A DNA stretch of 64,000 nucleotides from Turneriella sp. (GTDB taxonomy: Bacteria; Spirochaetota; Leptospiria; Turneriellales; Turneriellaceae), in the NCBI GenBank assembly GCA_965279515.1, contig CBDIID010000003.1, positions 3,776,001 to 3,840,000 on the forward strand, read 5' to 3'. A program made the translations under genes and the position numbers. The stretch's first letter is position 1. Every line of letters starts with the position of its first letter. This document shows positions 8,898-26,684 of the stretch, piece by piece. The notes beneath the pieces are model-generated. The model saw nothing but the letters and a program-made list of their open reading frames with translations. It searched no databases and was not told the origin of the DNA.

Positions 8898-9085
8898 AAC
8901 GTGGATTTTACCCGACGAAATGGCTGGAGGCGTCTTCGCCGCAAGCCATTTTGTGCCCGGAGCAGCTCGCGGTGGCGCGCAAAAGCAAGCGTCCCGCTTG
9001 CGCGCCGTCCGCGATCTTCGCTGCGGAGTGGCTGAGCACCCGAGGAGCCACGGCACCGCAGGGAGCGCAACGGGTAAAATTTGTT
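8898..9085 (-). repeat. attC-like element E9 (short variant, 188 bp)
   Basis: AACgtggattttacccg ... cgggtaaaatttGTT; first hairpin lacks the AT-rich loop. Confidence 0.85.
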
Positions 9086-9147
9086 GTCTGAAGTAATTGC
9101 GCCTGTGAGCACGGGCATGGAGGCCCGGGCGACGACGGACAAGTTCT

Positions 9148-9250
9148 CATAATCAATACTCCGACAGTTTAGCCCAATCTGAAACAGGCTTTACACCTGA
9201 GAGACCATGGGTGCCATAGATCCCAATGGGGAGCAATTTCTTATATATTC
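9148..9250. repeat. Scaffold module M, left copy of cassette 10
   Basis: CATAAT...aacaggctttacacctgagag...ggggagcaatttcttatatatt; homologous to 17876-17980. Confidence 0.8.
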
Positions 9251-9539
9251 AAAGATACTCAATACTCTCGAAAAACAGGGTTTGTTGCGGCGCGAACGCT
9301 CTTCCGAGGACAAGCGGGGCTTTTTTGCGACAACTACCGATTTAGGGAGCGTCGAAGTGCGCAAGGCTTGGATCATCTACAAAAAGGGCATTCACGTATA
9401 TTTTGAGAAAGCTTTGACGACGCAAGAAGTGCAGCAGCTGCTGGTTAACTTGCCTAAGCTCAGGAAAATATTTCAATATAAAGATTCCGCGCCCGTTACG
9501 CATAGGCATTATTGTGGCTTATATTTTGCTATCTCCTAA
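9249..9539 (+). pseudogene. N-terminally truncated MarR-family regulator
   Basis: SKILNTLEKQGLLRRERSSEDKRGFF is a MarR recognition helix and wing; the upstream codons are module M sequence. Confidence 0.65.
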
Positions 9540-10136
9540 GCCTATATCCGACAATTTTTCTAAAACAATATCTGCCAATCCGTATTCAACCGCAGCTTTG
9601 GCATCGAGATTATAGTCTCTATCGGTGTCTTTTTCAATGCGCGACAATGACTGACCGGTAGTAGCGGCAATTATACGATTCATTTCTGCTCGAGTTTTTT
9701 TAATCTCGTCGGCAAAAATCTTAATGTCAGATGCCGGTGCCGTGACTTCGCCGCTGATCAATGGTTGATGAATTAGAATTTTGGCATGTTCGAATACGTA
9801 CCGGTGACCTTTCTCACCCACCGTCAGAAAAATAGCACCCATGGATGCGGCAATACCCATAGCAATCGTATACACAGGAGAAGAAATCAGTTTCATAACA
9901 TCATACACAGCCATGCCAGCTGTTATCACGCCGCCGGGAGAATTGATAAAAAAATAAATCGGTTTTCCGGGATCTGTCGCTTCAAGAAAAAGCAACCGCT
10001 CAATGAGACTCTCCGCAGATTTGTCTGTTACCGGGCCCCAGAGAAAAATTTGACGTTGGGTTATAAATTTCTGAGCCAAACGCTCCTGCATCGGTGGTGA
10101 CTGGAAAGGTTCCCCGGATTTTTTCTTTGATTGCAT
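9519..10136 (-). CDS. clpP: ATP-dependent Clp protease proteolytic subunit
   Basis: INSPGG, GIAASMGA, ILIHQP, DTDRD motifs. Confidence 0.93.
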   Translation of the reverse strand: MQSKKKSGEPFQSPPMQERLAQKFITQRQIFLWGPVTDKSAESLIERLLFLEATDPGKPIYFFINSPGGVITAGMAVYDVMKLISSPVYTIAMGIAASMGAIFLTVGEKGHRYVFEHAKILIHQPLISGEVTAPASDIKIFADEIKKTRAEMNRIIAATTGQSLSRIEKDTDRDYNLDAKAAVEYGLADIVLEKLSDIGLGDSKI

Positions 10137-10202
10137 GCGTTGCAGTTTACAACAAACATTTCAAATCGGCGATTATTTTTAGGGTAACGAGATGAATAAA
10201 AT

Positions 10203-10583
10203 CTACGATAACCAAACTTGCCCTGCCGTTTCGCCCTGCACAACAATCTCACCCGTATCATTGACGCACTCACAAGACATTGTCAACTTTACGCGCTTGG
10301 CAGTTTTGATCGCGCGCGTGACTATCATGCGACCTAGAATTTCTTCGCCTTCATAGACGGGCTTGATAAATTCCATAGTCATCGTGCGAGCGACATAGTT
10401 CATATCGCCGCCGAGCTTTGTGACAATGCTAGCGACCAGCAAACCTTGCGCAATGACTTTTTTATGCGGATTGGTATGGTGATCGCCATCGTCACCCGTG
10501 AGGCGGGCAAAATCTAAAATATCGTTGCGCGTAAAAATTCGCTTGTATTCATAGCTATCGCCTGCCTTCGGAATGATTTGCAT
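10203..10583 (-). CDS. MaoC/hot-dog fold dehydratase family protein
   Basis: FARLTGD...H...IAQGLLVAS...FIKPVYEGE; start taken at MQIIPK. Confidence 0.75.
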   Translation of the reverse strand: MQIIPKAGDSYEYKRIFTRNDILDFARLTGDDGDHHTNPHKKVIAQGLLVASIVTKLGGDMNYVARTMTMEFIKPVYEGEEILGRMIVTRAIKTAKRVKLTMSCECVNDTGEIVVQGETAGQVWLS

Positions 10584-10585
10584 TG

Positions 10586-11059
10586 CTAGTCCTTCGCGAT
10601 TTTGGCGTCCCAGGAAAAAAAACCTGGGCCGACGAGACAAAGAAACAGCGAGCTTAAGAGTTGCGCATACTCCGATCTAATTTCGTGCAGTACCGCCCAC
10701 GCACCGACCTGCGGCGGCGACGCGGGGAGCGGTAAAGGTGAGGTGCCATAATATAGCGCAATTTTTGTACACAACATCGCAACAACCATTTGAAACATAA
10801 ACCCTATGCCCACAATCCGGGTAAACAACCCCAGTAACAGGCATAGCCCACCCACGATCTCAAACCCACCGACGAACGTTGCTGTCATGTCAGGCCATGG
10901 AAACCCTAGTTTCGTAAAACGGCCGACTCCTTGGTTGAGATAGACGAACTTGAGAATTCCCTCCCAAAGAAACACCCCACCAGCCATTAGCCTAATCCAG
11001 AAAATAGCCTTGGGTCCGTCGACGGGTGGATGTATCAACCACGAATAAATATTTTTCAT
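10586..11059 (-). CDS. DoxX family membrane protein
   Basis: IRLMAGGVFLWEGILK...FEIVGGLCLLLGLFTR...GPGFFSWD. Confidence 0.88.
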   Translation of the reverse strand: MKNIYSWLIHPPVDGPKAIFWIRLMAGGVFLWEGILKFVYLNQGVGRFTKLGFPWPDMTATFVGGFEIVGGLCLLLGLFTRIVGIGFMFQMVVAMLCTKIALYYGTSPLPLPASPPQVGAWAVLHEIRSEYAQLLSSLFLCLVGPGFFSWDAKIAKD

Positions 11060-11092
11060 TTTAACTCCTATTTTTAACTGTTCTACAAGGTT

Positions 11093-11118
11093 GACTCAGT
11101 TCAGGTGCACTTTATTCC
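11093..11118 (-). promoter_or_regulatory. Candidate ECF-sigma promoter for doxX
   Basis: Minus strand GGAATAAA-N15-GTC upstream of doxX, divergent from an ECF sigma gene. Confidence 0.4.
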
Positions 11119-11186
11119 GCGCAATGGGAATTTTTTTAGCATTAGACTGGTCATATCATTAGAGTGAAGGCGAATGGTGTCAAACC

Positions 11187-11708
11187 GTGATATTCAATAA
11201 ATCCGCACGCTTTGAAGAGCTGATTAGACCGCACGTTGATTCGGCCTATAACCTTGCGCGCTATTTAGCGCATAACGACGCAGATGCTGAAGATATTCTA
11301 CAAGAATCCTTGATCAGAGCGTTTCGCTTCTTCGAGACCACGCAGGATTTACGCCCTTGGTTCTTGAAAATTGCGCGCAATTGTGCCTATAGTTGGCTGA
11401 AAAAGCAAAATCGCTATCAAGAGATGACCGATGACGAGATGAATTCCCTCGTCGACGAACAACCTATTGCTGAGGCGCAGTGGTTAAAAGAGATTACGGT
11501 TTTTGAAGTTCGTGAAAATATTCTGAAACTTAAAGCACAATTTCAAGAAGTTTTGGTCTTGCGCGAACTTGAGCAACTGTCCTACGCGGAGATTTCATTT
11601 ATCACAGGCATAGCGCAAGGGACCGTAATGTCTCGCCTTGCGCGCGCGCGAAAAAAGTTTCGGGAATTTTACGAACAGGCTCAGAGGGAGGTCTCACGTG
11701 ACAAATGA
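11187..11708 (+). CDS. ECF sigma-70 factor
   Basis: DAEDILQE, PWFLKIARN, LSYAEI...GTVMSRLARAR. Confidence 0.93.
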   Translation: MIFNKSARFEELIRPHVDSAYNLARYLAHNDADAEDILQESLIRAFRFFETTQDLRPWFLKIARNCAYSWLKKQNRYQEMTDDEMNSLVDEQPIAEAQWLKEITVFEVRENILKLKAQFQEVLVLRELEQLSYAEISFITGIAQGTVMSRLARARKKFREFYEQAQREVSRDK

Positions 11709-12318
11709 ACATAAACTAGAAGGCGAATCTGTCTTTGGCGCGAAGCGTAAGTACCTATACTTCAAGCTACCCGATGCACGCCGTGAACGTCTCTTCGCAG
11801 AAATTCGACCCAAATTTGCGGCAAAAACGATTATGGCAATTGCGGCATCGACTCTACTAGCCATGAGCTTTTTTTTCGGGCAAGCCATGTCGACAAAAGA
11901 TGCTCCAGACCAGATCGCCGGTGAAGTTGTGTCTGCACATGTTCACTCGTTGATGGTCGGTCATCTGTCGGATATCGCCTCATCCGACCGACATACCGTA
12001 AAGCCATGGTTTGACGGTAAGTTAGATTTTTCGCCTCAAGTCAAAGATCTGTCCGCCGCAGGATTTCCGCTCGTTGGCGGCCGATTGGATTACATCGGGA
12101 GTCGTTCGGTCGCGGCACTGGTGTACAAGCATCGAAAGCACGTTATCAATTTGATGCAGTGGCCTGTGAGCGAAAGCGACGGAAAACCAACGTTCTCGAC
12201 GCGGCGTGGTTATCAAATGTACACATGGACGGCTTCAGGCATCAAACATTGGTTGATTTCTGATCTGAACGGGGGTGACCTGCAAAAATTTGTAAATTTA
12301 TTGCTGAACAAAAGCTGA
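11698..12318 (+). CDS. Transmembrane anti-sigma factor
   Basis: SSDRHTVKPWFDGKLDFSP...GFPLVGGRLDY; follows the ECF gene; start approximate (GTG). Confidence 0.85.
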   Translation: MTNEHKLEGESVFGAKRKYLYFKLPDARRERLFAEIRPKFAAKTIMAIAASTLLAMSFFFGQAMSTKDAPDQIAGEVVSAHVHSLMVGHLSDIASSDRHTVKPWFDGKLDFSPQVKDLSAAGFPLVGGRLDYIGSRSVAALVYKHRKHVINLMQWPVSESDGKPTFSTRRGYQMYTWTASGIKHWLISDLNGGDLQKFVNLLLNKS

Positions 12319-12347
12319 GATAGTTCGCTTAAAAAACGGTAACGCAT

Positions 12348-12375
12348 TTTAATAGTTGCTGAGGCAACTATTAAA
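12348..12375. promoter_or_regulatory. Palindromic operator TAGTTGC-N4-GCAACTA (site 1)
   Basis: tttaatagttgc-tgag-gcaactattaaa; motif recurs at 14736 and 15245. Confidence 0.7.
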
Positions 12376-12390
12376 TCAAAAGGAGCCCTC

Positions 12391-13488
12391 GTGAAGAATT
12401 TGCTATGGATCTTAGTGTCAGTGAAAATTCTCAGCGTTAGCGAACTTGCTGCGGCTAAGAGAGTGTTGATTCTAGACTTTCACAATACTGACCGCGATGG
12501 AAGCTTAACATATCTCGAAGAATCGCTAACAGCAAGTGTCCGAACTTACCTGCACGAGAAGTACGAATTTTTCGAACCTGATGTTGTGGATGTACGCAAG
12601 CGAGCTGACGCTGATTATTTTATTTTTCCGGACGATTTACACAATAAAAATGTCGCGCTGCATCTGGGGCTTGCCATGGGTCAAGATATCGTTTTGAGCG
12701 GTGCATTTAAACGAAAAATTGAATCTTCGGGGCGAAATCTCATCATCGTAGATATCATGTTATTGAATGTTGAAAAGCGCACACTTGTTAAACAATTTGT
12801 GAGCGAACTCTATATAGATAGCAATATCTTCAAATCTATCGAGCTCGTATCCCGCCGCGTGGTAAAAGAATCGCAAGAGATTTTGCCCAATAAGAGCGAA
12901 TTTGAATTTGATATACATTCTCCTCTATCACAAAATCAATTGGCATTGTTTAGCGGCTATAATCTTAACTCCCTTTTTCCAGCCTTGCAAAAAAATGCGA
13001 CAATCGAAAATAAATCTCGGGTGGTAGTTGCTGATCTCGGTGGGCCATTTCTTTCACTGGAATTCAGGCGGGATCGATTTTTTAAGCTAGCACGATTGAT
13101 AGGTTATGGCCGTCTCGACGGGCAATTCTTTTTGAGTGATTTGGCCATCCAAGATTCAGCAAATCGCGCCAAAATACAGGGCTTAGGCTTTTCTGCCGAA
13201 CTCGGTCTAGGCTACAATTTGTTTCGCTACAAAAAGCTAAATCTCTATTTTCTGGGTGGAGTCGGTTTTGCATACGCAAAAGTCAGCCTGGATCTGCAGG
13301 ATACCGGGCAGCCCGATACTGTGACCGGTTCAATTTTTGGCCCAACGGCCAGCACGGGATTGCGTGCAGCGTTTCAAATTTCACCCTCTACTAGCTTTGA
13401 ATGGGGTGTTAGCTACCAAGCTTTATTCTTACAACAATCGTTGGCGGGTAATTTATTAACTTCCATAGGCGTAGGATTCAGACTATGA
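12391..13488 (+). CDS. Exported protein, possible C-terminal beta-barrel
   Basis: Signal peptide; alternating beta-strand pattern ending GVGFRL. Confidence 0.7.
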   Translation: MKNLLWILVSVKILSVSELAAAKRVLILDFHNTDRDGSLTYLEESLTASVRTYLHEKYEFFEPDVVDVRKRADADYFIFPDDLHNKNVALHLGLAMGQDIVLSGAFKRKIESSGRNLIIVDIMLLNVEKRTLVKQFVSELYIDSNIFKSIELVSRRVVKESQEILPNKSEFEFDIHSPLSQNQLALFSGYNLNSLFPALQKNATIENKSRVVVADLGGPFLSLEFRRDRFFKLARLIGYGRLDGQFFLSDLAIQDSANRAKIQGLGFSAELGLGYNLFRYKKLNLYFLGGVGFAYAKVSLDLQDTGQPDTVTGSIFGPTASTGLRAAFQISPSTSFEWGVSYQALFLQQSLAGNLLTSIGVGFRL

Positions 13489-14726
13489 AAACCAAACCAA
13501 ACTCTCTGTTGCTTCTCTCGATCACTTTATTTTTCAGCTGTAGTGGAGGCCTTGAAATCGACACACAGTTCGGCAAAGTTCTGGTTTCCCCGACTACGGG
13601 CCTGACGACAATTGCTGGCGGTGGGACTACAAACTTCTCTTTGGCTCTCGCTCAAAAACCCAAAGCCGATGTGACTATCCGCCTGAATAGTTCTGCTGAA
13701 TCGCTTGGCTACGTCGATAAAAAACGCCTTGTTTTCTCTGCGCAAAATTGGTCGCAGAAGCAAATTGTCACGATCACGGGTACTGACGAAACAATTAGCG
13801 CCAACATTGCTCAAAAGTATAAGATAGTTTTTGCGCCCCTTGAAAGTATAGATGGCAACTACAGCGCGCTACAGATACCAGAGCTTGCAGTGCTGAATTA
13901 TCCCGCTGTCGCTGGCTTTACTCTGAGCGCCACATCGGGGCTTACGACGACAGAAGCGGGTGGTACAGCCACCTTTACGATGCGATTAAATCGACAACCG
14001 ATGGGGAATGTGACGGTCAATCTTAGCTCGAGTAATATTCTTGAAGGCACTATTTTGCCTGCGAGTTTTATTTTCACTAGTGCAAACTGGAATATCGTTA
14101 AGACGGCGACAATTACAGGCATTCCTGACTTAAAACTTGATGGCAATGTTGATTTTAACATAGTTACCACGGTTGCGCTTGGCAGTGATTCTGAATACCT
14201 ATTGCTGAATCCGACGGATTTCAGTGTTACCAATATCGATGTTGATAGTGGCAAATTTCTTTTTGTCACTACGGCTAGTTTCATGGGTACAGGTGGTTTA
14301 ACTACCATGGATATTCGCTGCAATGCAGTCGATGCCGCGCGGCCGACGGTTGGTGGTACGTATCAAGCTGTCTTGGGCGCACTAGACAGCGCAGGTAACG
14401 TCGTACGCAGCGGGGGGCTTTTAGCCAATCAGAGATACTATCGCGGCGTGGATAGCCTCTATGTCGGCATCACGAATGGCTTGGGTCAACTTCAGTTTCC
14501 ATTGACGAATAGCACTTTGGGCGGCTCAGGTATCTACTGGACAGGACTAACCGCAAGCTTTGGCGTGAGTATCGACACCTGTCGAAATGGAGCGGTTGAT
14601 TCTTGGACCGGTGGGCCGTTCAACGGTACTGTTGGCACTGGCACCGTAACCTCATCCGCAGCTGTGGCCACTGGCACTGGCAGTTGCGGTGCTGGAACTG
14701 CGAGGCTTCTCTGCGCACAGCAATGA
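13485..14726 (+). CDS. Lipoprotein with Ig/Calx-beta-like repeats and a DUF1554-like C-terminus
   Basis: FFSC lipobox; two repeats (FSAQNW, FTSANW); FLFVT...C...WTGL...LLCAQQ. Confidence 0.7.
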   Translation: MKTKPNSLLLLSITLFFSCSGGLEIDTQFGKVLVSPTTGLTTIAGGGTTNFSLALAQKPKADVTIRLNSSAESLGYVDKKRLVFSAQNWSQKQIVTITGTDETISANIAQKYKIVFAPLESIDGNYSALQIPELAVLNYPAVAGFTLSATSGLTTTEAGGTATFTMRLNRQPMGNVTVNLSSSNILEGTILPASFIFTSANWNIVKTATITGIPDLKLDGNVDFNIVTTVALGSDSEYLLLNPTDFSVTNIDVDSGKFLFVTTASFMGTGGLTTMDIRCNAVDAARPTVGGTYQAVLGALDSAGNVVRSGGLLANQRYYRGVDSLYVGITNGLGQLQFPLTNSTLGGSGIYWTGLTASFGVSIDTCRNGAVDSWTGGPFNGTVGTGTVTSSAAVATGTGSCGAGTARLLCAQQ

Positions 14727-14735
14727 GAATGCTAA

Positions 14736-14757
14736 ATTGGTTGCCAACGCAACCAAT
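14736..14757. promoter_or_regulatory. Palindromic operator (site 2) upstream of the MarR gene
   Basis: attggttgc-caac-gcaaccaat. Confidence 0.7.
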
Positions 14758-14773
14758 GACTCGTCTTTGGCTC

Positions 14774-15211
14774 ATGCTTAGCCTAGATAAGGCCTATGGA
14801 TTTCATATCGTACGCATTGCACGACTTTTGCGACTGCATTTTTCTAGGTTCGCCGAAAAAAACGGGTTCGATATTTCGCAAGAGCAATGGCTGATCATGA
14901 ATAAATTAGCGCATAACCCTGGTCAATCCCAACTTGAACTCGGCGATGCATTGATACACGACAAACCCAACATCACACGAATTTTGGCCGGCATGGAAAA
15001 GCGCAAGCTCATTCAACGCCGCGTCGACACCAGCGATCGCCGCATTATGCGCGTGAGCCTCAGCGCGCAAGGTAGAAAATTGCATGAAGAATTTTCAGAG
15101 GTCGTCGCCAACGAGCGGCCGAAAATTTACGCAGGTTTAGCTGAGGCAGATTTCATAAATTTGATGAAAGTTCTGTCGCAGCTCGAAACGAACATTAGCC
15201 GCAACATGTAA
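14774..15211 (+). CDS. MarR-family transcriptional regulator
   Basis: ISQEQWLIM...DKPNITRIL..MEKRKLIQR...DRR; start taken at MLSLDK. Confidence 0.9.
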   Translation: MLSLDKAYGFHIVRIARLLRLHFSRFAEKNGFDISQEQWLIMNKLAHNPGQSQLELGDALIHDKPNITRILAGMEKRKLIQRRVDTSDRRIMRVSLSAQGRKLHEEFSEVVANERPKIYAGLAEADFINLMKVLSQLETNISRNM

Positions 15212-15244
15212 TGCGAAGCTTAAAAAAAGGCCTCATAACGGCAA

Positions 15245-15264
15245 ATAGTTGCCTAGGCAACTAT
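15245..15264. promoter_or_regulatory. Palindromic operator (site 3)
   Basis: Perfect 20-bp palindrome atagttgcctaggcaactat. Confidence 0.75.
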
Positions 15265-15271
15265 AAGAAAT

Positions 15272-15733
15272 TTGAAGGAGAAAATGATGAAAAAGAAAAC
15301 GAGAAAATCCATGTTGTTCATGGCATTGACACTGATGACGGGTGTATTTGCTGCACCAGAAAGCGCGGGCACGGTCAAAGAGTTGCGCCGAAAAATCGAA
15401 GCGTTCAAAGACGCCGGTGACGCACGCGACGTGGCGGCGATGAATGCAGTGCTGCACAAAGATTTTCGCTTAATGGCGTTTATCGGCGCCGCGACTGAGG
15501 GCATGGCGATGGATAAGGCGGGCTATGTCGGTGCGCTTACCGCTGGCAAAATCGGCGGAACCAAGCGCGCGCACAAGATTCTATCGCTTGAAGTGCGTGG
15601 CAAACACGCCGCGATTCGCATTCAGATGACGTCGAAAGAATTAAAATTCGACACGTACATGCAATGGGTTCAGACCGTCGATGGTTGGCAGCTCGTGAAC
15701 GATTTAACGCTGGCAGTACCTCAGGCAAAATGA
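15272..15733 (+). CDS. Exported NTF2-like (DUF4440/SnoaL-like) protein
   Basis: Signal peptide; DVAAMNAVLHKDF...DGWQLV. Confidence 0.7.
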   Translation: MKEKMMKKKTRKSMLFMALTLMTGVFAAPESAGTVKELRRKIEAFKDAGDARDVAAMNAVLHKDFRLMAFIGAATEGMAMDKAGYVGALTAGKIGGTKRAHKILSLEVRGKHAAIRIQMTSKELKFDTYMQWVQTVDGWQLVNDLTLAVPQAK

Positions 15734-15734
15734 C

Positions 15735-16232
15735 ATGCGCCGGGTGGTATGGGCAGTTATTATTTCGGGGTGGTGCTTGAGCTCAGCCACCCCGCGCGCA
15801 AATCTCATTCAGGCGCAGGGTATGGAAGTCACTTGGTCGCTTACAAGCGATGAAGTGATCTTTAAGCTGCGCGCCCCGCATACAGGTTGGGTGGCGATTG
15901 GGATTAATGAGTCAGACAACCTCACTGGAACCAATCTGATAATGGCGACAGTTTCCGGCAATGCAGCAAACCTGTCTGACCGCAGCATTATTGCACCCGG
16001 CGACCATCGTAGCGTTGAGACACTCGGCTGTAAATCGCATGTGCGATTAATTTCGGGTAGCGAACAAGCTGGCGCCACGAACATTCAGTTTGCGCTCAAG
16101 CTGCAAAGCAGCGATCGCTACCATTACTCTCTGAGCGCCGGAAAAAAAATCTGGCTACTCATGGCTTATAGTGAAAGCGACGATTTAATGCACCATTCTT
16201 TGTTTAGAACTTCGAAACAAATTATGTTGTAA
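15735..16232 (+). CDS. DOMON domain protein
   Basis: VTW...GWVAIG...D..HHS pattern. Confidence 0.8.
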   Translation: MRRVVWAVIISGWCLSSATPRANLIQAQGMEVTWSLTSDEVIFKLRAPHTGWVAIGINESDNLTGTNLIMATVSGNAANLSDRSIIAPGDHRSVETLGCKSHVRLISGSEQAGATNIQFALKLQSSDRYHYSLSAGKKIWLLMAYSESDDLMHHSLFRTSKQIML

Positions 16233-16268
16233 TGGAAATGGAAATTTGATTTAGGAAAGGAGAAAAAC

Positions 16269-18250: not shown

Positions 18251-18312
18251 GTCTGAAGTAATTGCGCCTGTGAGCCCTGGCAAGGAGGCCAGGGCGACGG
18301 CAGATAAATGCT

Positions 18313-18407
18313 CATAACTTGTCATTTTGTCACCTTCAAAAACAGGCTTTACACCCGAGAGATTCGGGATTCTGTAGGCCTTAGTGGGGAGTAATTTCCT
18401 ACATATT
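18313..18407. repeat. Scaffold module M, left copy of cassette 11
   Basis: 95/95 identical to 23611-23705 by direct comparison. Confidence 0.95.
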
Positions 18408-18625
18408 AATATAAATCCCGCGTGGGCAGGCGTAGCGCATTAATGGTCACCTTGACTTGAGACGGGAATATGAATTATCGCACCGAGAAACAGACCCCGC
18501 GATCTGTCACTGCGCACAACAGAATTTAGGATTCTGCACCAGAATACCAGTCGGATTCGAGGATTGCGCTGCGGAAAAATGATTCGTCCGGAGCAGCGTA
18601 ATCGGGCTTTACAGACGCCACGCGC

Positions 18626-20236
18626 TTGTTGAGGTTGTTGACCCCCGTATCTATCATGCTGCTCCGATCAATGAGTATCATATTTCTCCTCGGCGTTGCG
18701 CCGGTTTTTTCCGCAGACTTAAGGCTTGAAATACCGCAACCCTATGATTTGGGTAAATTTTGCGCGTATACGCTCCTACCGAATGCAGCGGCGAACGTTG
18801 AAGAGGTTCTGACACTACCCACAGCGCAGTGGAAGCCAATACATTCCAGCGTGATTTCCCTGGGGGTAAACCCCAGTATCGTATGGCTACGTTGCCGCCT
18901 CGTCAATCAATCCGTTGAGCAAAATTGGTCATTGGTTTCGCAATACAATTTTGGCCGAAGCATCGAAGCATTTTTCGTGACCGGACGGGAAAAAATGCCA
19001 CAGGCGGCGCAACTACAGCCAAATACCAAATCGTTCTGGCAGCGCAACGACGCCTTCGCGCTACCGACCAAAAGCGCGCAGCCAATCGAAATAGTGCTGC
19101 GCTACGAATCTGATTTAGCGAAAGTAATGTATTTTCAGGTGATGCCTGAACGGCTGCTCACCGGACAGGAAAATCAGGAGAGCGCATTTTTTCTTGTCTT
19201 TACCGCCGTTTTAATCTTGTTCATACTGCTGAATCTGTTGCTCGCGGTAAGCCTTAAATCCGTTATTCCGGTATTGTATTCGCTTAGCATGCTGACCTAC
19301 TACCTGTACCAAATTATCCAGCTGGGTTTCGGTCCCGTGCTATTTTATCCTGACCGGCCTGCCATAAACGGAAACATGGTAAGCATTTCAGCGGGCATCT
19401 CCATAATTTTTTATCAATTATTTTTCCAGCGTCTGTTACAGTTCAAGACGCTCGTTCCGCGATTGAATCTTGTGATGAATGTAATAAGCGTCGTTTCTGG
19501 CGTGTATATTTTTGCCACTGCTTTCACGCTTCTGCCTATTGGTATTTTGCAAAAAATCGGCCGGCTTTTGTTTTTCACAGCGGCAATGGTTGTCTTTTCT
19601 GCGGGATGGATTGTTTACCGCAAGCGCTTCAGGCCAGCTATATATTCGATCTACGGTTACGCTGTGATCTTGCTCTGCCAGAGCTTCTATTTTGCTGTGA
19701 TGTCGGGCTTTATCGATTTTGGCGGTTATTTCGTGAAAATAATTCTACCCTTGGGTCAAACGGTCGAGTATCTGTTTTTCTTTACCACGTTGTCTCTGCG
19801 CCTTAGGGACAAGGCGCAAATCAACCGCCTACGCCAAATTACCGAAGACGAAGAAATAACCCGCGATCTGCAAACCGATGAAAAACTAAGGTTATCCGAA
19901 GACAAGGCTGCCAAAGTGAGCGACGAATTACGCGAAATTTTCACGCGGGAAAAAATTTTCTGTGACGAAGACCTTTCGCTCGATCGTCTTTCTGCCATGC
20001 TGCATATTACACGGCATGAATTATCCGATCTATTGAGCAAGCGGTTTGGCACAAATTTCTACGATTTTATCAACCGGTATCGGGTTGAAGAGGCGCAGAG
20101 ACTGTTACGCGAAAATCCAGAAGAAAAAATACTGGATATCGCCATGGCGGTTGGCTTCAACAGTAAGTCGACGTTCAATAAGGAATTCAAAAGAGTCACG
20201 GGAAAAACGCCTAAGGCAACGCGGAATCCGTCCTAA
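18626..20236 (+). CDS. 7TM-DISM sensor with C-terminal AraC HTH
   Basis: Extracellular N-domain, about 7 TM segments, FYDFINRYRVEEA...VGFNSKSTFN. Confidence 0.88.
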   Translation: MLRLLTPVSIMLLRSMSIIFLLGVAPVFSADLRLEIPQPYDLGKFCAYTLLPNAAANVEEVLTLPTAQWKPIHSSVISLGVNPSIVWLRCRLVNQSVEQNWSLVSQYNFGRSIEAFFVTGREKMPQAAQLQPNTKSFWQRNDAFALPTKSAQPIEIVLRYESDLAKVMYFQVMPERLLTGQENQESAFFLVFTAVLILFILLNLLLAVSLKSVIPVLYSLSMLTYYLYQIIQLGFGPVLFYPDRPAINGNMVSISAGISIIFYQLFFQRLLQFKTLVPRLNLVMNVISVVSGVYIFATAFTLLPIGILQKIGRLLFFTAAMVVFSAGWIVYRKRFRPAIYSIYGYAVILLCQSFYFAVMSGFIDFGGYFVKIILPLGQTVEYLFFFTTLSLRLRDKAQINRLRQITEDEEITRDLQTDEKLRLSEDKAAKVSDELREIFTREKIFCDEDLSLDRLSAMLHITRHELSDLLSKRFGTNFYDFINRYRVEEAQRLLRENPEEKILDIAMAVGFNSKSTFNKEFKRVTGKTPKATRNPS

Positions 20237-20376
20237 GGGCATTCTCTGCCTGCGCTCTGCCCACGGCGGCGGTTTGTGATGAAAAAAAAGAGCCTCCCTA
20301 CGTCCGACTGGAACCAAACGGTCGAAATCCGCCGGATTCTGCTGTATTAGATGAGCACCAAAAAACAGGAGAATCT

Positions 20377-21111
20377 ATGAAAACATACTTTACTTTGCTC
20401 ATCGCGCTCACTCTCGCAGCTTCGCTGCCAGCTGCGCCCAAGAACGCCGCAAAACCAACGAAGCCAGTAGCCACCGAACCGCCGGCAGCCGCAGCCGTAC
20501 CGACGCCTCAGCCGACGCCAAAAACAGAGGGAGGCTTGGTCATGAGCCTGGCATTCTACGGTGCGTATAACATCGCAAGCTCAGACCTCTTCACCTTACC
20601 CGCGGGAAGCACGGCCAGCTGGACCACATCGGGTGGTGGCGTTTTAGGCGCAGGCGCTAATTTTATGATCGGCAGCCAGCTGATCCGCGGTGGGGTAAAT
20701 GTTGCCTATTCTCCCATTGGCGAATACCGGCAAGGCGGTTCGACGGTATTTCTTAGGTACTTACCCATCGAAGGCTTACTGCGTCTTTATCCGATCGCCG
20801 GCCTTTATGTCGGCGGCTTGGCTGGGTACGCGCTTGATCTGAGTTCGGCCGTGGTTTCGGGCAGCGGTTCGCTGACAAAAACCGACGGCATAACGTATGG
20901 CGGCAGTCTCGGCTACCTGATCAAAAATGGGCCCGTCGACTTAGATCTCGGCGTTGATATTCGGATGTTATCGTTGTCAGCAACCGCCCCTACCGGTGGC
21001 AGTAATTTTTCCCTAACCAGTCTTGACGCGACCAGCGTTGCAGCGGGTGTGAGCAAAACCTACACAATTTTGAATATTGTTCCACGCGTCGGCTTTAATT
21101 ACAAATTCTAA
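20377..21111 (+). CDS. Exported protein, probable outer-membrane beta-barrel
   Basis: Signal peptide, Pro/Ala linker, ends VGFNYKF; AGGAG RBS. Confidence 0.72.
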   Translation: MKTYFTLLIALTLAASLPAAPKNAAKPTKPVATEPPAAAAVPTPQPTPKTEGGLVMSLAFYGAYNIASSDLFTLPAGSTASWTTSGGGVLGAGANFMIGSQLIRGGVNVAYSPIGEYRQGGSTVFLRYLPIEGLLRLYPIAGLYVGGLAGYALDLSSAVVSGSGSLTKTDGITYGGSLGYLIKNGPVDLDLGVDIRMLSLSATAPTGGSNFSLTSLDATSVAAGVSKTYTILNIVPRVGFNYKF

Positions 21112-21114
21112 ATT

Positions 21115-21585
21115 GTGCACTACAGGTTTGAGTTGACACCATTTTTTCGTAAGGTAATGAAGGAAAATATGAAATCAGAAGCAACCACGCAAGCAACAGC
21201 AGTTCGCGCCGTTCAGGCCTGGCTGGTAATTTGTAGCGGGATCTTTTTCTGCCACTGCGGTGCTACGGCAGGTCTTAATGCCCGTAACGTCGACCATCCG
21301 GTGATGGTGGGCAATGTTCGCCGCATAGGGGCACGGCCTGCCGGCGAATTGAGAAATAGCCAACCCCTGTCGTTTAAGAACACCCAAAACGGTGACTACA
21401 GCACACTCTCGCCCGGCCGGCTCAGCGGCTACCTGCTGAAGAATCTGGGATACAAAAACAGTGTGGTGCAAATCAACAGCATCGGGTACAAAAATACGGT
21501 CGCGAACTATTTTTTTACCTGGTCGGTACGCGATGAAGCAAGTATCGAGGGTGAAGGCGGTCTGCAATCCGAAGGGGGCAGATAG
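21115..21585 (+). CDS. Hypothetical (lipo)protein
   Basis: ORF in an operon-like run; start uncertain. Confidence 0.6.
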   Translation: MHYRFELTPFFRKVMKENMKSEATTQATAVRAVQAWLVICSGIFFCHCGATAGLNARNVDHPVMVGNVRRIGARPAGELRNSQPLSFKNTQNGDYSTLSPGRLSGYLLKNLGYKNSVVQINSIGYKNTVANYFFTWSVRDEASIEGEGGLQSEGGR

Positions 21586-21586
21586 A

Positions 21587-22021
21587 ATGCTCTCGTTGAC
21601 AGGCAAAATGAAATACCTAATGGTCATGTGTATTGTCATCGTGCTAAACTGCGCTGGCAGTCAGGGTGCGGTACGATTTGATCATTTGGATTATCCCGTT
21701 TCTATGAGCGGCTTTTTGTATGGCAAGAATAACGAAATTCTCATGAAAGATCTGCACATGCAAGAAGTCGGAAAATTCTCGCTGACCCGGCGGCAGTGGA
21801 GCATCGGTTACTCACTCATACCGCTGAATGGCAAAGAGGCTTTCGCCGAGGCCATGAACCAGGCTATCATTGCAGCCAAGGGTGACGCGATGGTCAACCT
21901 CGAGATCGAGACGGCTAGTTGCTCATGGAACAGTGTGCCGTACCTTTTTCTGTTGCCCATTTGGCCCGGTTGCGCTGATGTCAAACTGACCGCAGATATT
22001 ATCAGGGAGAAACGACCATGA
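21587..22021 (+). CDS. Hypothetical lipoprotein
   Basis: VLNC lipobox-like; start taken at MLSLTG. Confidence 0.7.
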   Translation: MLSLTGKMKYLMVMCIVIVLNCAGSQGAVRFDHLDYPVSMSGFLYGKNNEILMKDLHMQEVGKFSLTRRQWSIGYSLIPLNGKEAFAEAMNQAIIAAKGDAMVNLEIETASCSWNSVPYLFLLPIWPGCADVKLTADIIREKRP

Positions 22022-22431
22022 AATTTGCCAGCACAATTCACCGGACGATAGTGCGCGTTATTTTTTTCTGCCTGCTTTCAGCACTCGCCGCGCAAGTGCC
22101 GCAAGATGTATTGTTGCTTGAAGAAGAACAGGTGAATATTTTTCATTTGCACCGAAATTGTAAATCTCTCGGTGTGATCGAAACGGAAAGGTCATGGCCG
22201 TATAAAAAAACAGAATATGCATCACTCGAAAAATCCAGGATCGCAGAAGAAGCAATTATGCGCGACATGGGCTATCGGGCCGGGGCAAACGCCATGCAGT
22301 TCTTAGGTATGAAATATAGCGTCAGAACGATCGGTCGGAAAATACCGGAATTCAGAATTGACATTAGCACCGATATTCGCTACTGGAAATGTGACCCCAA
22401 AACGCTCGGTATGCTAAAGCGCAGAGAATGA
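22018..22431 (+). CDS. Hypothetical exported protein
   Basis: ATGA-coupled to its neighbours; signal peptide. Confidence 0.7.
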   Translation: MKFASTIHRTIVRVIFFCLLSALAAQVPQDVLLLEEEQVNIFHLHRNCKSLGVIETERSWPYKKTEYASLEKSRIAEEAIMRDMGYRAGANAMQFLGMKYSVRTIGRKIPEFRIDISTDIRYWKCDPKTLGMLKRRE

Positions 22432-23231
22432 TGCTGCGCGTATTTGTCGGCGTCTTTCTGTTCGCATGCCTCGCCGCATGCAATGCGCGCCCGTCGTTCG
22501 ATAAGATGATTGTGCGCCAACCGGGGTCGCGAAAGGCGATTGGGAACAAAGTCTTCGTCGATCAGGCGACCGGCGGCGGCGAAAACGACGCCCTGTCGCC
22601 AACGATCGCCGGCGAAATCAAAATTCCCAACGAAGAATTCACCAAGGCTGTTGAAACGTCGATACGCCAATCCGGTTTTTTCTCAGAGTATGCCGCGCGC
22701 TTTGAAGAAGAGTGGGGGCTGCGGGTGCTCATCGTCAACGTTGAAACGCATATGGACATGCTTGCGGCGACCATGACAGGGCACGTGACGGCGAGATATT
22801 CCGTTTTTTACAAGAATAATCCGGCATACGAATTTGAGTTTCAGACTAAGGGTGCCGCGACCGATTACCTCGGCAGCTATGGCGGTCTGCGCAAAGAGGC
22901 GGTTGAAAAAGCGACGCAGCAAAATATTGCACAATTTTTGCAGCACGTCGTAACCTATGATTTCTCCGATATTACCGAAGCGCCTGTGCAAGAAAAGCTA
23001 CGGCAGAAAAAACAAATTCGCATCGTTGGGCGCATTTTCCAGATTAACGGACGCAAGGTCGATATCATACCCGCCGCTGGGGCGCTCAAAGTGGGAAAAA
23101 TTTACACTATCTTGCGCAAGGACAGGCCAGTCGCAACTGTAAGGGTAGATACCGTCTTCCATACCAAGTGTGCCGGAAAAATCTTGACCGGCGGCGCGGC
23201 GATCGCACCGGATATGTCTGTTGGACAGTGA
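22428..23231 (+). CDS. Hypothetical lipoprotein
   Basis: LAAC lipobox; ATGA overlap. Confidence 0.75.
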   Translation: MMLRVFVGVFLFACLAACNARPSFDKMIVRQPGSRKAIGNKVFVDQATGGGENDALSPTIAGEIKIPNEEFTKAVETSIRQSGFFSEYAARFEEEWGLRVLIVNVETHMDMLAATMTGHVTARYSVFYKNNPAYEFEFQTKGAATDYLGSYGGLRKEAVEKATQQNIAQFLQHVVTYDFSDITEAPVQEKLRQKKQIRIVGRIFQINGRKVDIIPAAGALKVGKIYTILRKDRPVATVRVDTVFHTKCAGKILTGGAAIAPDMSVGQ

Positions 23232-23315
23232 CGGCGTTTCTGCTTTTACTATAACTGTCCGTACCCAAAATTAATTCTGGCTGACGCCCTTACCGATGCG
23301 CCGGTTCATGCATCT

Positions 23316-23597
23316 ATGGCACAAAACATCCACGCATTCACCGCCGCCAACATTTCCGGCAAAGAAACAAGCCTCGCCGATTACAAAGGCAAAGTTGTTT
23401 TGATTGTGAACACCGCCAGCAAATGCGGCTTCACACCGCAGTTCGCGGGTCTCGAATCGCTGTACGAAAAATACAAAGACCGCGGTCTCGTGATTCTTGG
23501 CTTTCCCTGCAACCAATTTGGCGCGCAAGAACCCGGTACATCTGATCAGATTCAGGAATTCTGTCAGCTCAACTACGGGGCAAATATAGCACTTTAA
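23316..23597 (+). pseudogene. C-terminally truncated glutathione peroxidase
   Basis: [24 protein letters not shown] present; homology stops at NYG (~23580) where the scaffold motif begins; WNFxKF motif missing. Confidence 0.88.
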
Positions 23598-23610
23598 GGC
23601 ACTAACTACC

Positions 23611-23705
23611 CATAACTTGTCATTTTGTCACCTTCAAAAACAGGCTTTACACCCGAGAGATTCGGGATTCTGTAGGCCTTAGTGGGGAGTAATTTCCTAC
23701 ATATT
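23611..23705. repeat. Scaffold module M, right copy of cassette 11
   Basis: Identical direct repeat of 18313-18407. Confidence 0.95.
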
Positions 23706-23775
23706 CAATATCGCTGTTCTCGTCAGAGCGCGCGCACGGATGCGCGCGGATAACCAAGGCGCAATTATTTCAGAC

Positions 23776-23984
23776 AACGTGGATTTTACGCTGACGTTTT
23801 TTGACGCTTGTGTCATTTATTCAATCTGTAAAGCCGATTTGCGTCAAAAAATGTGGTCGTAGCGGCTCGCGGCGACGCGCGAAAACACACCTCCCGGTGT
23901 GCGCGTCGTCCGCGATCTTTGCCGCGGAGACCCGAGCACGCGAGGAGCTACGGCACCGCAGCGGCGCAGCGCGTAAAATTTGTT
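23776..23984 (-). repeat. attC-like element E11
   Basis: E7 family. Confidence 0.88.
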
Positions 23985-24049
23985 GTCTGAAGTAATTGCG
24001 CCTGTGAGCTCGGCCACGGATGGCCGAGCGAATCCTTCGTAGGACTTCT

Positions 24050-24143
24050 CATAACTGGTTGTTTTCCCCCCCTGTCAATCGGGCTTTACAGCCGATAGGT
24101 GAGGTTTAAGTTCCCCTTAGTGAGGAGCAATATCCTATATATT
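24050..24143. repeat. Scaffold module M, left copy of cassette 12
   Basis: cataactggttgtttt...cgggctttaca...ggagcaatatcctatatatt. Confidence 0.75.
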
Positions 24144-24149
24144 AAATGT

Positions 24150-24617
24150 TCAGAGCATCAGCTCCATCGAATAGTTTACCAGAATTTGGCCATTCCGCTC
24201 GATGTGATTTTCGCAAATTTCTCGAAAGCCTTGCTTTGCAAAAAACTTTCGCGCGACAAGCGACGCTTCGACATAGAGTCGCTTTAACCGCATTTCGATT
24301 GCCTGACGTTTCACCTCTTGGTAGAGGGCCGTGCCAACACCCTTGCTTTGAAAATCTGGCCGCACGTATGCGCAGTCAATGTGTCCATCGGCCTCAAGCT
24401 CGATGAAGCCCGCAATCATCGGGCCGACAAGAGCGACATGCGGGCGCTTTTGATTAAGGCGCGTTTGCCATTTTATCATATCGGTTGGAGTTGGCGCCCA
24501 TGCTTCTTTTTGCTTAGCGGTATAAATTCTTTCATCGATGGCATGCACCGCAGTATGAAAAAGATCTGCAATCTCTCCAGCCATTGATTCAGAATAAGGC
24601 GATAATTGCCTGATCAT
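24150..24617 (-). CDS. GNAT N-acetyltransferase (YafP-like)
   Basis: DGHIDCAYVRPDFQSKGVGTAL...EASLVARKFF. Confidence 0.9.
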   Translation of the reverse strand: MIRQLSPYSESMAGEIADLFHTAVHAIDERIYTAKQKEAWAPTPTDMIKWQTRLNQKRPHVALVGPMIAGFIELEADGHIDCAYVRPDFQSKGVGTALYQEVKRQAIEMRLKRLYVEASLVARKFFAKQGFREICENHIERNGQILVNYSMELML

Positions 24618-24624
24618 ACTGAAA

Positions 24625-25227
24625 TCAGCCCGCCTTCAATCCGGCTATAAGCAAGTGAATAACCGCTTCGGCTTCGGCCCTGGCTTTCGTCGAATCTTTA
24701 GCGGTGGCAATAGCTGCGCCCGCTTCCGCAAAAGCTCCGCCCAGAATCCGCGCCGCATCGGGCAAGGGCAGCGGCCGCATGATACCCATTTCTATCCAGC
24801 GGTGCATCAAGCCCGCCACCAGAGGTTCATTGACCGTGGCGTCGGCTTCTTTAAATTTTGCGTGGGCCAAAACGGTAGGTGCCTCACGCAACAGAACCAC
24901 CTGAACAGAGGGGTCCATACAAGCATTCAGGTAAGCGCGAGCTGCTGCCTCGACTTGCGCCCAGCCTGTTTCAGCATCGGCCGCATTCTGAATGGTCGAA
25001 GCCAGTTCGGTGAAAATTTCCGAAACGACGGCGGAGAAAATGTCAATCTTGCCCGCAAAGTGGTGGTAGAGTGCGCCATGAGTCACGCGAGCTGCCCTGC
25101 AGATATCAGCAACGCTGGTTTCTGCATATCCATACTTTGTGAAGACTTGCCGAGCAACACGCAACAAACCTTTCCTTCTAACGGCTTTTTGTTCCACACG
25201 GCTTTTTACGGTTCGTTGCTTAGGCAC
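24625..25227 (-). CDS. TetR-family regulator
   Basis: GYAETSVADICRAARVTHGALYHHF. Confidence 0.92.
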   Translation of the reverse strand: MPKQRTVKSRVEQKAVRRKGLLRVARQVFTKYGYAETSVADICRAARVTHGALYHHFAGKIDIFSAVVSEIFTELASTIQNAADAETGWAQVEAAARAYLNACMDPSVQVVLLREAPTVLAHAKFKEADATVNEPLVAGLMHRWIEMGIMRPLPLPDAARILGGAFAEAGAAIATAKDSTKARAEAEAVIHLLIAGLKAG

Positions 25228-25243
25228 GAGGAAATCCGATTTT

Positions 25244-25291
25244 ATTTGACATTACGTCGTAATGTTTATACATTATCATATAATGTCAAAT
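25244..25291. promoter_or_regulatory. Tandem palindromic operators overlapping a sigma70-like promoter
   Basis: acattacgtcgtaatgt and acattatcatataatgt; TTGACA-N17-TACATT on +; lies between divergent tetR and cupin genes. Confidence 0.7.
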
Positions 25292-25410
25292 ACAATAACA
25301 ACCGCTGATCTAGGTTTTTATGGGTCACGATTCGCGCCGCACGTCTGTGGCATAGTCTCACAAACGATGTTATTTTTTCTGGGTGGGATGGCAACCATGC
25401 GCGCCCTAAG

Positions 25411-26316
25411 GTGCATATGATGAGAAAAGCGAATCTGATCTTCGGTATCGTCTTGTTTCTTGCTTTTCTAGGCACAGGATATTACATGAGCCGCTACTTC
25501 AAGCCCGAGCATCTAACGGATCTGACGATGCGCATGCAAATTCGGGCAAGCCATATCTATCTACTATTCACCGCGCTCTTAAACATCCTGGCATTTACGT
25601 GCGAACTGCGTGGAACCGGCCAGGCAAGAAAATTTTTCGATACGGCTTTTCGTCTATTTCTCGTCGCTGCCGGCACCGTCGCGCTCTGCGCATTCGCTTT
25701 CGAGCATACCGGCGACCTGAAAGAACGCAAGCTGACTTTGTTATCCGTTATATTGGCGTTAGCTTCGGTTGGCTTCATTTTGATCCACGAGATTTTGGCC
25801 GCAAAGCGCCAGCATTTATTTTTGTCTAGCCATGCCTTGACTATGGAAAAACCAATCGCTGTGAACGCTGGAAAAATTGAAGCGCGCCAAAAAAAATCCA
25901 TATACCCGGCTCCTTTTGCAGCAATGATGGCGCTGCGCGAAAAGCGAGTGCTGGGCGATCTTTTTGGCCTGACAAACTTCGGAGTGAACTTGACAACAAT
26001 TAAGCCTGGTGGCATGTCTGCGCTACGGCATGCACATGCAACACAAGATGAGTTTATCTATATTGTTTCGGGAAATCCCGTGCTGGTGACTAATGAAGGT
26101 GAAACGCAACTCAGTCCGGGTATGTGCGCGGGATTTCTTCATGGAAACGGAAACGCACACAACCTAATCAATCGCGAAAACACCGACGCTGTTTATCTCG
26201 AAATAGGCGACCGGAGCGCTGGCGATTCCATCTTATACCCCGATAACGATCTCATGGCAAATTTTGAAGGCCCTGGCAACTGGCGATTTACCCACAAAGA
26301 CGGCTCGCCCTACTAA
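25411..26316 (+). CDS. Four-TM membrane domain fused to a cupin domain
   Basis: C-terminal half LGDLFGLTNFGVNL...RHAH..QDEF...NAHNL is a cupin; N-terminal half is hydrophobic. Confidence 0.75.
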   Translation: MHMMRKANLIFGIVLFLAFLGTGYYMSRYFKPEHLTDLTMRMQIRASHIYLLFTALLNILAFTCELRGTGQARKFFDTAFRLFLVAAGTVALCAFAFEHTGDLKERKLTLLSVILALASVGFILIHEILAAKRQHLFLSSHALTMEKPIAVNAGKIEARQKKSIYPAPFAAMMALREKRVLGDLFGLTNFGVNLTTIKPGGMSALRHAHATQDEFIYIVSGNPVLVTNEGETQLSPGMCAGFLHGNGNAHNLINRENTDAVYLEIGDRSAGDSILYPDNDLMANFEGPGNWRFTHKDGSPY

Positions 26317-26361
26317 CCGAACACGTGTCTCAAAAATATAGCCCTTTAAGGGCTGACTTTC

Positions 26362-26409
26362 CATAACTGGTTGTTTTGTCCCCCTGTAAGGAGCAATATT
26401 CGAGATATT
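26362..26409. repeat. Internally deleted right copy of module M (cassette 12)
   Basis: cataactggttgttttgtcccctgt joined to aggagcaatatt; both ends match 24050-24143. Confidence 0.7.
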
Positions 26410-26475
26410 GAAGCCTGATTACGTTGCCGCGTCGACACGAGGTCGGCGCAGCACAAAGGCGCAATTATTTCAGAC

Positions 26476-26684
26476 AACGTGGATTTTACGCTGACGTTTT
26501 TTGACGCTTGTGTCATTTAATCAATCTGTAAAGCCGATTCGCGTCAAAAAATGTGGTCGTAGCGGCTCGCGGCGACGCGCGAAAACACACCTCCCGGTGT
26601 GCGCGTCGTCCGCGATCTTTGCCGCGAAGACCCGAGCACGCGAGGAGCTACGGCACCGCAGCGGCGCAGCGCGTAAAATTTGTT
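26476..26684 (-). repeat. attC-like element E12
   Basis: E7 family. Confidence 0.88.

Follow-up and report, generated by a model that had tools for sequence, protein, structure and literature searches.

We analyzed a 64-kb stretch (64,000 nucleotides; hereafter, the window, G000:C3:3776001-3840000) of a Turneriella sp. genome (G000; 4.9 Mb, 53% GC), in which three large cassettes, located at window positions 9083-26478 of an integron-like array, each carry a multi-gene cargo between two direct copies of a short module, M. All three cassettes follow one order, namely terminal inverted repeat (TIR), hairpin A, M, cargo, M, hairpin B, and TIR, and the preliminary description of this layout, made from the sequence alone, is correct in all particulars of arrangement and position. 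We consider it likely that M represents the oriIS-type end, the final ~105-125 nt, of a rolling-circle insertion sequence (IS) of the IS91 family, and that the M-cargo-M cassettes are products of an IS91/ISCR-like one-ended capture of DNA beside a resident M.

The genome contains two arrays of mostly single-gene units, one of ~85 kb (G000:C3:85900-170700) and one of ~70 kb (C3:3734400-3804600), with a GC content below that of the genome; positions 1-28600 of the window are the terminal part of the ~70-kb array. Its cassettes are separated by structured repeat units of 215-265 nt (minimal unit, ACAACGTGGATTTTAC to GTAAAATTTGTTGT), which are imperfect palindromes with inner boxes of the AAC/GTT type (ACAAC.../...GTTGT). 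Two classes of cassettes were distinguished: (i) class 1, in which the open reading frames (ORFs) lie mostly on the minus strand and directly adjoin the unit; and (ii) class 2, which carry plus-strand genes and, at each end, an extra 17-21-nt inverted repeat (the TIR extension) and a hairpin, A on the left and B on the right (e.g., window 29-927, 6804-7929, and 9083-18045). The loops of hairpins A and B both read ..GGAGG/ACGAGG on the same strand, and the TIR extensions GTTGTCTGAAGTAATTGCGCC / GGCGCAATTATTTCAGACAAC, together with hairpins A and B, flank all three M-cargo-M cassettes. Within these cassettes, every right-hand copy of M (M-right) has ~20 extra nt at its 5' end (AAATATAG-CCCTTTAAGGGC) relative to the left-hand copy (M-left), giving a complete form of ~124 nt, termed M* (AAATATAG...TATA(C/T)T), the 5' boundary of which is sharp in many contexts. 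We read the AAATAG..CTTTAAGG motif, which precedes each M-right, as the 5' end of this complete form. The features of the three cassettes and of their class-2 neighbors are as follows (window coordinates).

6855-6962, plus strand: degenerate M-left of an earlier class-2 cassette.
8896-9087, plus strand: attC-like unit before the first of the three cassettes (cassette 10), with inner inverted repeats ACAACGTGGATTTTAC ... GTAAAATTTGTTGT.
9083-9133, plus strand: class-2 scaffold, consisting of the right TIR extension (9083-9103) and hairpin A (~9107-9133).
9140-9249, plus strand: M-left of pair 1, ending ...TATATT and followed by CAAA (9250-9253), where MarR homology starts.
9250-17844: cargo 1 (8.6 kb); the first gene is a 5'-truncated MarR (ORF 9207-9539), and the genes continue with ClpP, MaoC-like, DoxX, ECF sigma, DUF1554, MarR, DOMON, thioredoxin, DsbD, and RidA.
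17845-17976, plus strand: complete M* (M-right of pair 1) that includes the 5' AAATAG..CTTTAAGG portion; next tetranucleotide, TAAT.
17997-18045, plus strand: hairpin B (17997-18016) and left TIR extension (18025-18045).
18041-18295, plus strand: attC-like unit (18041-18252), right TIR extension (18248-18268), and hairpin A (18274-18295).
18305-18407, plus strand: M-left of pair 2, followed by AATA.
18408-23581: cargo 2 (5.2 kb), with an AraC/7TMR-DISM regulator, five ORFs without a Pfam family, and the N-terminal 93 of 160 aa of a glutathione peroxidase (GPx; ORF 23316-23597), which the M-right junction interrupts.
23582-23705, plus strand: complete M* (M-right of pair 2); next tetranucleotide, CAAT.
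23728-24029, plus strand: a block of hairpin B (23728-23748), left TIR extension (23758-23778), attC-like unit (23774-23986), right TIR extension (23982-24002), and hairpin A (24008-24029).
24042-24143, plus strand: M-left of pair 3, followed by AAAT.
24144-26333: cargo 3 (2.2 kb), with a GNAT acetyltransferase (minus), a TetR regulator (minus), and a cupin protein (plus).
26334-26409, plus strand: M-right of pair 3, with the 5' part and the 3' end retained and the core deleted, followed by GAAG.
26430-26478, plus strand: hairpin B (26430-26448) and left TIR extension (26458-26478).
27447-27547, plus strand: M-left of the next cassette, which holds an ankyrin gene (27574-28236) and a 5' remnant of M-right (~28262-28300).

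The two Ms of pair 1 are ~80% identical and have a 7-nt insertion in common. Those of pair 2 are 97% identical over 103 nt, and since all three mismatches fall within the first 8 nt, the 95/95 identity previously noted from position 18313 is correct, as is the internal deletion noted in the second M of pair 3 (26334-26409). The repeats are not assembly artefacts: unitigs from public runs cover the whole of 9081-18026 and 23980-26482 (three runs, from at most two samples of one study, which is possibly the window's own source). The unitig for the pair-2 cargo (18313-23640) ends within the identical Ms, as a 95-nt exact repeat would lead one to expect. Short contigs of a freshwater metagenome run (X1), which shares only a small proportion of sequence words, match cargo 2 without mismatch at 18813-18963, 19086-19236, and 21813-22082. 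Candidate joints of excised or circular forms on contigs had short sides (22-57 nt) lying inside shared repeat parts and were read as cross-matches between cassettes; contigs cannot reveal rare excised or circular forms.

A profile of M detects ~20 copies in the 4.9 Mb of the genome, nearly all of them within the two arrays, and this repetition is not a matter of chance. The copies include five pairs, namely the three in the window and those at C3:3736386/3737830 (pair 4) and C3:3762990/3763855 (pair 5). Most pairwise comparisons among the M copies of this genome give 65-83% identity, with pair 2 as the exception; within-pair identity is 97% for pair 2, 80% for pair 1, 79% for pair 3, 76% for pair 5, and 71% for pair 4. 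Several further M-left copies are accompanied by an M-right that has decayed to its first 35-40 nt, as in the ankyrin cassette (27447-28300). Moreover, a degenerate GGCTTTACAC core follows hairpin A even in many class-2 cassettes without a profile-detected M, and the association of M with class 2 is therefore old. The few copies outside the arrays include C3:2882942-3046 and C3:3244001-3244095. The latter (minus strand; L015) is an isolated complete M directly upstream of an ORF, with GAAGAG at the end of M and then ATG, and it may supply expression signals to the downstream gene. A structured-RNA nature of M was considered and dropped, as RNAalifold called no consensus pairs among 17 copies. 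By eye, CAGG and CCTG on either side of CTTTACA can be read as a short stem in M, in which some changes compensate each other, and the 5' end of M* has a palindrome, AGCCCTTTAAGGGCT.

The identity of M emerges from the relatives. A sequence model of M matched in 11 of 20 genomes; in one of these, G011, a 5-kb stretch holds six identical M* copies, of which three form a perfect tandem, and a gene for a 382-aa transposase is found immediately upstream of the cluster. This protein contains the Pfam domains Y2_Tnp (PF04986) and Zn_Tnp_IS91 (PF14319), scores 151.4 bits against the NCBIfam model NF033538 (IS91 family transposase; cut-off, 125), and is 27-29% identical over ~90% of its length to annotated plasmid IS91-family transposases. 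When aligned with two annotated IS91-family proteins, the HVH motif, Y234, R299/Y301, and the six Zn-binding Cys residues are invariant. Close homologues (80-88% identical) are found in G013 (twice), G005, G001 (fragments), and nine metagenome contigs, and distant ones (22-38% identity) in other phyla. In all 11 of the 11 loci with downstream sequence, the transposase gene is followed by an M on its own strand; these loci comprise G011, G013 (two), G005, G001, and six of the nine close metagenome contigs (the other three end earlier and were excluded). The distance from the stop codon to M is ~140 nt, or ~360 nt in G005, where a duplicated piece of the 3' end of the gene lies between; among the IS copies, conservation extends continuously across the gene and M, as far as ...TATA(C/T)T. 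Given this link in every locus and the continuous conservation, we identify M as the end of an IS91-family element that lies distal to the transposase, a position that passages of PMC13181058 assign to oriIS in this family. The enzyme that the preliminary description expected to co-occur with M is thus found, in relatives, as an IS91-family transposase, whereas its view of M as an att-like site fails, M being the end of an IS and lying outside the arrays as well, the very outcome that the description had named as refuting it. Some copies of the IS have their left end at TGAG, whereas in others it lies ~75 nt farther to the left, and no single terIS emerged. Neither TIRs nor target-site duplications were seen by eye in M* copies, including at the G011 flanks, and a miniature inverted-repeat transposable element was rejected on these grounds.

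In the transposase-bearing genomes, the Ms are nearly identical to one another; for example, the four Ms of G005 are 94.6-99.2% alike. A search of G000 for an IS91-family transposase returned no match, either with the protein query or with PF04986, and its M copies are thus orphan ends. The best explanation is that the IS lives in the cassette arrays of the genus Turneriella, and that G000 has lost the transposase while keeping solo ends. A congener cassette, on G013:C1, has the look of a still active version: it consists of a TIR extension, hairpin A, a degenerate M-left, an IS whose M abuts GAAC, a 3.2-kb segment containing three ORFs, a complete M* that abuts TAAT, hairpin B, and a TIR extension, and its two Ms are 98.4% identical. 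A degenerate M-left is likewise present upstream of full IS copies located in class-2 scaffolds. A small island outside the main arrays of G011 (L019; G011:C1:1043100-1049400), right after a sodium:solute symporter gene, contains a degenerate TIR extension with hairpin A, the IS91-family element, the six identical M* copies, two reversed units, and small cargos; it looks like cassette material moved by read-through transposition.

The flanks of M are those of an IS91-type end. Among 39 M copies with a profile match reaching the 3' part, 34 have a sure end, and of these, 25 are followed by NAAN (background, 8.5%; binomial p = 4e-20) and eight by CAAG or GAAC (background, 0.7%; p = 1e-10). Passages of PMC3189936 list GAAC, GGAC, CAAG, and CGAC as the target words of IS801. 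Further, the left ends of the cargos start with CAAA, AATA, AAAT, or GAAC, and M* itself starts with AAAT, in agreement with the target-like word expected at the start of miniature right-end fragments. Within each window pair, both Ms have their best match in the M of the same IS lineage, namely L060 for pair 1 (85/87%), L064 (91/90%) or L063 for pair 2, and G013:C14 for pair 3 (83/86%). The lineage matched thus differs from pair to pair.

As had been proposed, the giant cassettes hold captured chromosomal DNA between two Ms, with several genes per cargo and genes cut at the junctions. At the M-left end of pair 1, CAAAGATACTCAA... (starting CAAAGAT) aligns with the middle of a 156-aa MarR paralogue, and the 3' part of the MarR gene sits exactly at the 3' end of M-left; cargo 1 thereby opens with a gene fragment, followed by three minus-strand genes. 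In cargo 2, the GPx frame stops at residue 93 of 160 before M-right, and ...AACTACGG(G/C)G marks the point where it ceases to resemble four intact genes. Compared with the chromosomal genes of all 13 congeners, this GPx piece shows 71-86% identity; it is 83% identical to the copy of G000 itself. A chromosomal locus with the same cargo but without M, which the preliminary description had advised looking for, is present in a congener: the right half of cargo 2 is syntenic with G006:C177 at 69% identity, GPx is full-length there, and no M match is listed on that contig. The cargo is plain chromosomal DNA of another member of the group. No recombinase, relaxase, or reverse transcriptase gene was found in the three cargos.

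We propose the following sequence of events for the capture. The transposase, presumably acting in trans, would (i) nick beside M-right (...ATA(T/C)T / NAAN); (ii) the displaced strand would run leftward through M-right into the chromosomal flank of the donor genome, in a one-ended transposition; (iii) it would terminate at a NAAN word or at a second M; and (iv) the single-stranded product would enter a class-2 cassette next to its hairpin A, at the side of a resident M, yielding a multi-gene cassette. The nick site of the resident M (M|NAAN) would be the preferred landing place, giving A-M|cargo-M|NAAN-B; such a preference would likewise account for M* copies in tandem and for a degenerate M-left upstream of full ISs in scaffolds. 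The data fit a resident M beside hairpin A as the insertion acceptor, and landing there is the simplest account, which in that respect comes near the acceptor idea of the preliminary description. Alternatively, a composite of two M* copies, set by one IS in the donor, might have been moved as one piece. For the family, published behavior supports each step of one-ended transposition, from the nick to the termination. Passages of PMC13181058 describe oriIS and terIS as different ends, insertion that duplicates no target sequence, a tetranucleotide next to oriIS, and single-stranded circles, as well as failed termination in 1-10% of events, which moves adjacent DNA. For IS801, passages of PMC3189936 report the recruitment of 290-1431 nt of upstream DNA and right-end miniatures of 229-679 nt; such miniatures account for 26% of IS801 insertions (PMC3189936 / PMC13181058). 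In the Turneriella cassettes, one-ended carriage of DNA from the terIS side would be reflected in the pattern of cargo upstream of M-right, and the complete M* may behave like the miniature right-end derivatives of IS801.

Several observations weigh against this reading. The profile used to place the ends of M included flank columns, and the NAAN count may be somewhat inflated; in addition, nine of the 34 flanks are not NAAN. No consensus secondary structure was called for M, and the subterminal palindrome expected of such an end may at most correspond to the CAGG-CTTTACA-CCTG stem read by eye. As G000 has no transposase (0 matches), no activity can be claimed for it. Moreover, a full IS always has M*, which leaves some room for an IS that ends just before M* and lands beside it. 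M-left is without the first ~8-20 nt of M* and stands at a fixed offset after the TIR extension, of 38-42 nt (74-78 nt in some cassettes), and the first 8 nt of the pair-2 M-left differ from those of M-right, whereas the next 95 nt are identical. The missing 5' nucleotides, the fixed offset, and the chimeric pair-2 M-left could equally reflect recombination within M, and the exact fit of M-X-M between hairpins A and B stays without explanation.

The chimeric M-left and the fixed offset are also in keeping with the recombination proposed in the preliminary description. There, a circle carrying cargo and M integrates at the resident M of an empty scaffold, by attL/attR-like or homologous recombination, duplicating M and requiring no rolling-circle transposase. 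The sharing of sequence variants by both members in four of the five pairs, as read from the sequences, points the same way, as do the chimeric pair-2 M-left, the fixed place of M-left after hairpin A, the lack of a transposase gene in G000, and the presence there of an Xer/IntI-like recombinase. However, by identity only pair 2 stands out, and the identities of pairs 1, 3, 4, and 5 fall within the range of unpaired M copies. No integrase was found in or beside any cargo, as a site-specific element with attL/attR ends would call for, and the junctions of M and cargo lie at the very ends of M, with the NAAN word, and not at a core inside it. The empty TIR-A-M-B-TIR scaffold was not found either: the 47 class-2 cassettes listed all have at least 553 nt between their TIR extensions, and a pattern search of 20 genomes for scaffolds with 172-202 nt between these extensions, the only spacings searched, gave no match. 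Finally, M is physically part of an IS91-family element, and the M*-M*-M* tandem and the scattered identical copies would be unexpected from att recombination. We therefore regard this mechanism as improbable. Of the proposed circle capture at an acceptor M, the capture stands; the enzyme class and the process are already known, and M is no new att-like site.

M* might instead be a separate small mobile element, with the IS ending just upstream and preferring to land beside it, in which case each M pair would be a composite of two independent M* insertions that bracket DNA by chance, with no read-through capture. Its sharp 5' boundary (AAATATAG) in many contexts would suit an independent element, the IS-to-M* junction (...GGCC|AAAA) would itself satisfy the NAAN rule, and M* copies do insert side by side in G011. 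This view is nevertheless quite improbable: M is at an equal distance in 11 of 11 IS copies, the M variant differs among the IS copies compared, which suggests that M diverges with the IS, and no other transposase able to move M* was seen, IS91-type ends needing an IS91-type enzyme. Even then, the genes cut at both junctions would still demand that the bracketed DNA had moved into the cassette as one piece.

That M is a promoter or 5'-leader module of class-2 cassettes, its second copy arising by fusion of neighboring cassettes after loss of a unit, is very improbable: M-left precedes plus-strand genes in several cassettes, the isolated M ends at the start of an ORF, the degenerate GGCTTTACAC core persists after hairpin A, and ISCR1 ends are reported with outward promoters (PMC6218425), but a sigma-70 scan around M found no conserved hexamer pair, cargo 1 starts with a gene fragment and minus-strand genes, and cassette fusion would neither place the breaks in GPx and MarR precisely where M ends nor explain the transposase link or the NAAN flank.

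One-ended capture by an IS91-family element places the Turneriella system beside several known ones. As in the IS91 family (IS91, IS801, and IS1294), the transposase scores above the curated cut-off, an oriIS-type end lies downstream of its gene, there are no inverted terminal repeats and no target duplication, the flanking tetranucleotides include CAAG and GAAC, miniature right-end derivatives occur, and DNA on the side away from oriIS is captured with arbitrary break points. Unlike that family, however, the Turneriella element (i) has a transposase only 27-29% identical to annotated members; (ii) resides in cassettes of an integron-like kind, where it occupies a constant position between two hairpins; (iii) leaves M ends as direct repeats on both sides of the cargo, with a looser flanking word (NAAN); and (iv) has a 124-nt mini form that is stable across species and forms tandems. 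The fragments of IS801, according to passages of Bardaji et al. 2011 (PMC3189936), are likewise continuous pieces with the right terminus and a target-like tetranucleotide, arising by early termination and moved in trans by the transposase; M* differs from these in being shorter (124 vs. 229-679 nt), conserved across species, tandem, and paired around cargo.

A tie between IS91-like capture and an integron-type platform is also seen in ISCR elements such as ISCR1, and IS91-type gene capture linked to class 1 integrons is already known. In ISCR elements, captured multi-gene segments adjoin oriIS, and clade transposases are ~500 aa long. The 382-aa Turneriella transposase scores 29.6 bits against NF052416 (ISCR_clade_Ia; cut-off, 925) and is thus not an ISCR transposase. 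ISCR1 is linked to the 3'CS (3' conserved segment) in PMC6218425. The element lies outside the cassette array, beyond the 3'CS; the M ends, unlike it, lie within cassettes, and captured DNA thereby turns into a cassette with attC-like units at its borders. In the open-access papers and bioRxiv preprints searched, we found no description of IS91-family ends inside the cassettes of a chromosomal array; among those listed, the papers on chromosomal integrons were general ones, and on miniature IS91-family derivatives only PMC3189936 was pertinent.

The arrays themselves resemble sedentary chromosomal integrons in their mostly single-gene units, AAC/GTT-type palindromes, lower GC, and, in relatives, a recombinase beside the array. 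They differ in the length of the units (~215-265 nt), in a recombinase that stays below the IntI cut-off, and in a cassette class with 17-21-nt extra inverted repeats and hairpins A and B. Scans of the two array stretches with the right end of the unit gave 57 and 39 matches, BLAST with the unit gave 152 matches genome-wide, and its family is found in 12 of the 13 other genomes of the genus. The ends of the cassette at window 26690-27190, TTGTGCGAA and TTCGCACAA, match each other. The units are far longer than attC sites, which measure 57-141 nt. Among the 14 genomes of the genus, no protein exceeded the TIGR02249 integron integrase cut-off (265 bits). The Xer/IntI-like tyrosine recombinase of G000 reaches 161 bits and leaves model positions ~180-235 unmatched, which we take to be the location of the IntI-specific extra domain; its gene (C3:2926093-2926911) is distant from both arrays, and no recombinase was found at the array borders of this genome. 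An Xer/IntI-like recombinase (367-431-aa open frame) adjoins the array in G002, G005, G007, G012, and G013, and lies ~25 kb from it in G011. A plasmid collection searched with the unit and M matched only a 73-nt piece of the unit (window 23776-23847), which is 90% identical to six Leptospira interrogans plasmids, where it is annotated under 'hypothetical protein'; the search was uninformative on M, and the unit match suggests that such units may be exchanged across Leptospirales. No Rfam family matched the window at gathering thresholds, and among the papers listed in a search of the open-access and bioRxiv literature on Leptospiraceae, Turneriella, and Leptonema, none described such arrays or mentioned integrons or attC. 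Beyond the array end (28600), GC and GC skew climb sharply over 29-33 kb (window 28612-33121), and the first genes past the array encode a 251-aa protein (AraR_C match, weak), a cytochrome P450, and a DUF445 protein.

One may go further and suppose that the IS91-type transposase is a routine cassette loader, which copies arbitrary chromosomal DNA beside an M end and sets it down at the resident M between hairpins A and B of an attC-bearing scaffold. On this view, transposition, and not an integrase, would generate new cassettes that range from one gene to 9-kb operon fragments, and the degenerate M cores would be the scars of earlier loading; we advance this extension tentatively and think it rather unlikely. 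The findings bear on how integron cassettes arise, in that IS91-type oriIS ends stand at the payload borders in a large chromosomal array. They also carry a warning for annotation: the direct repeats that surround 'giant cassettes' can turn out to be solo IS91 ends, and these escape standard IS finders when no transposase gene is present. One concrete route of cassette formation is thereby made testable, with the transposase-bearing and transposase-free Turneriella genomes as natural controls.

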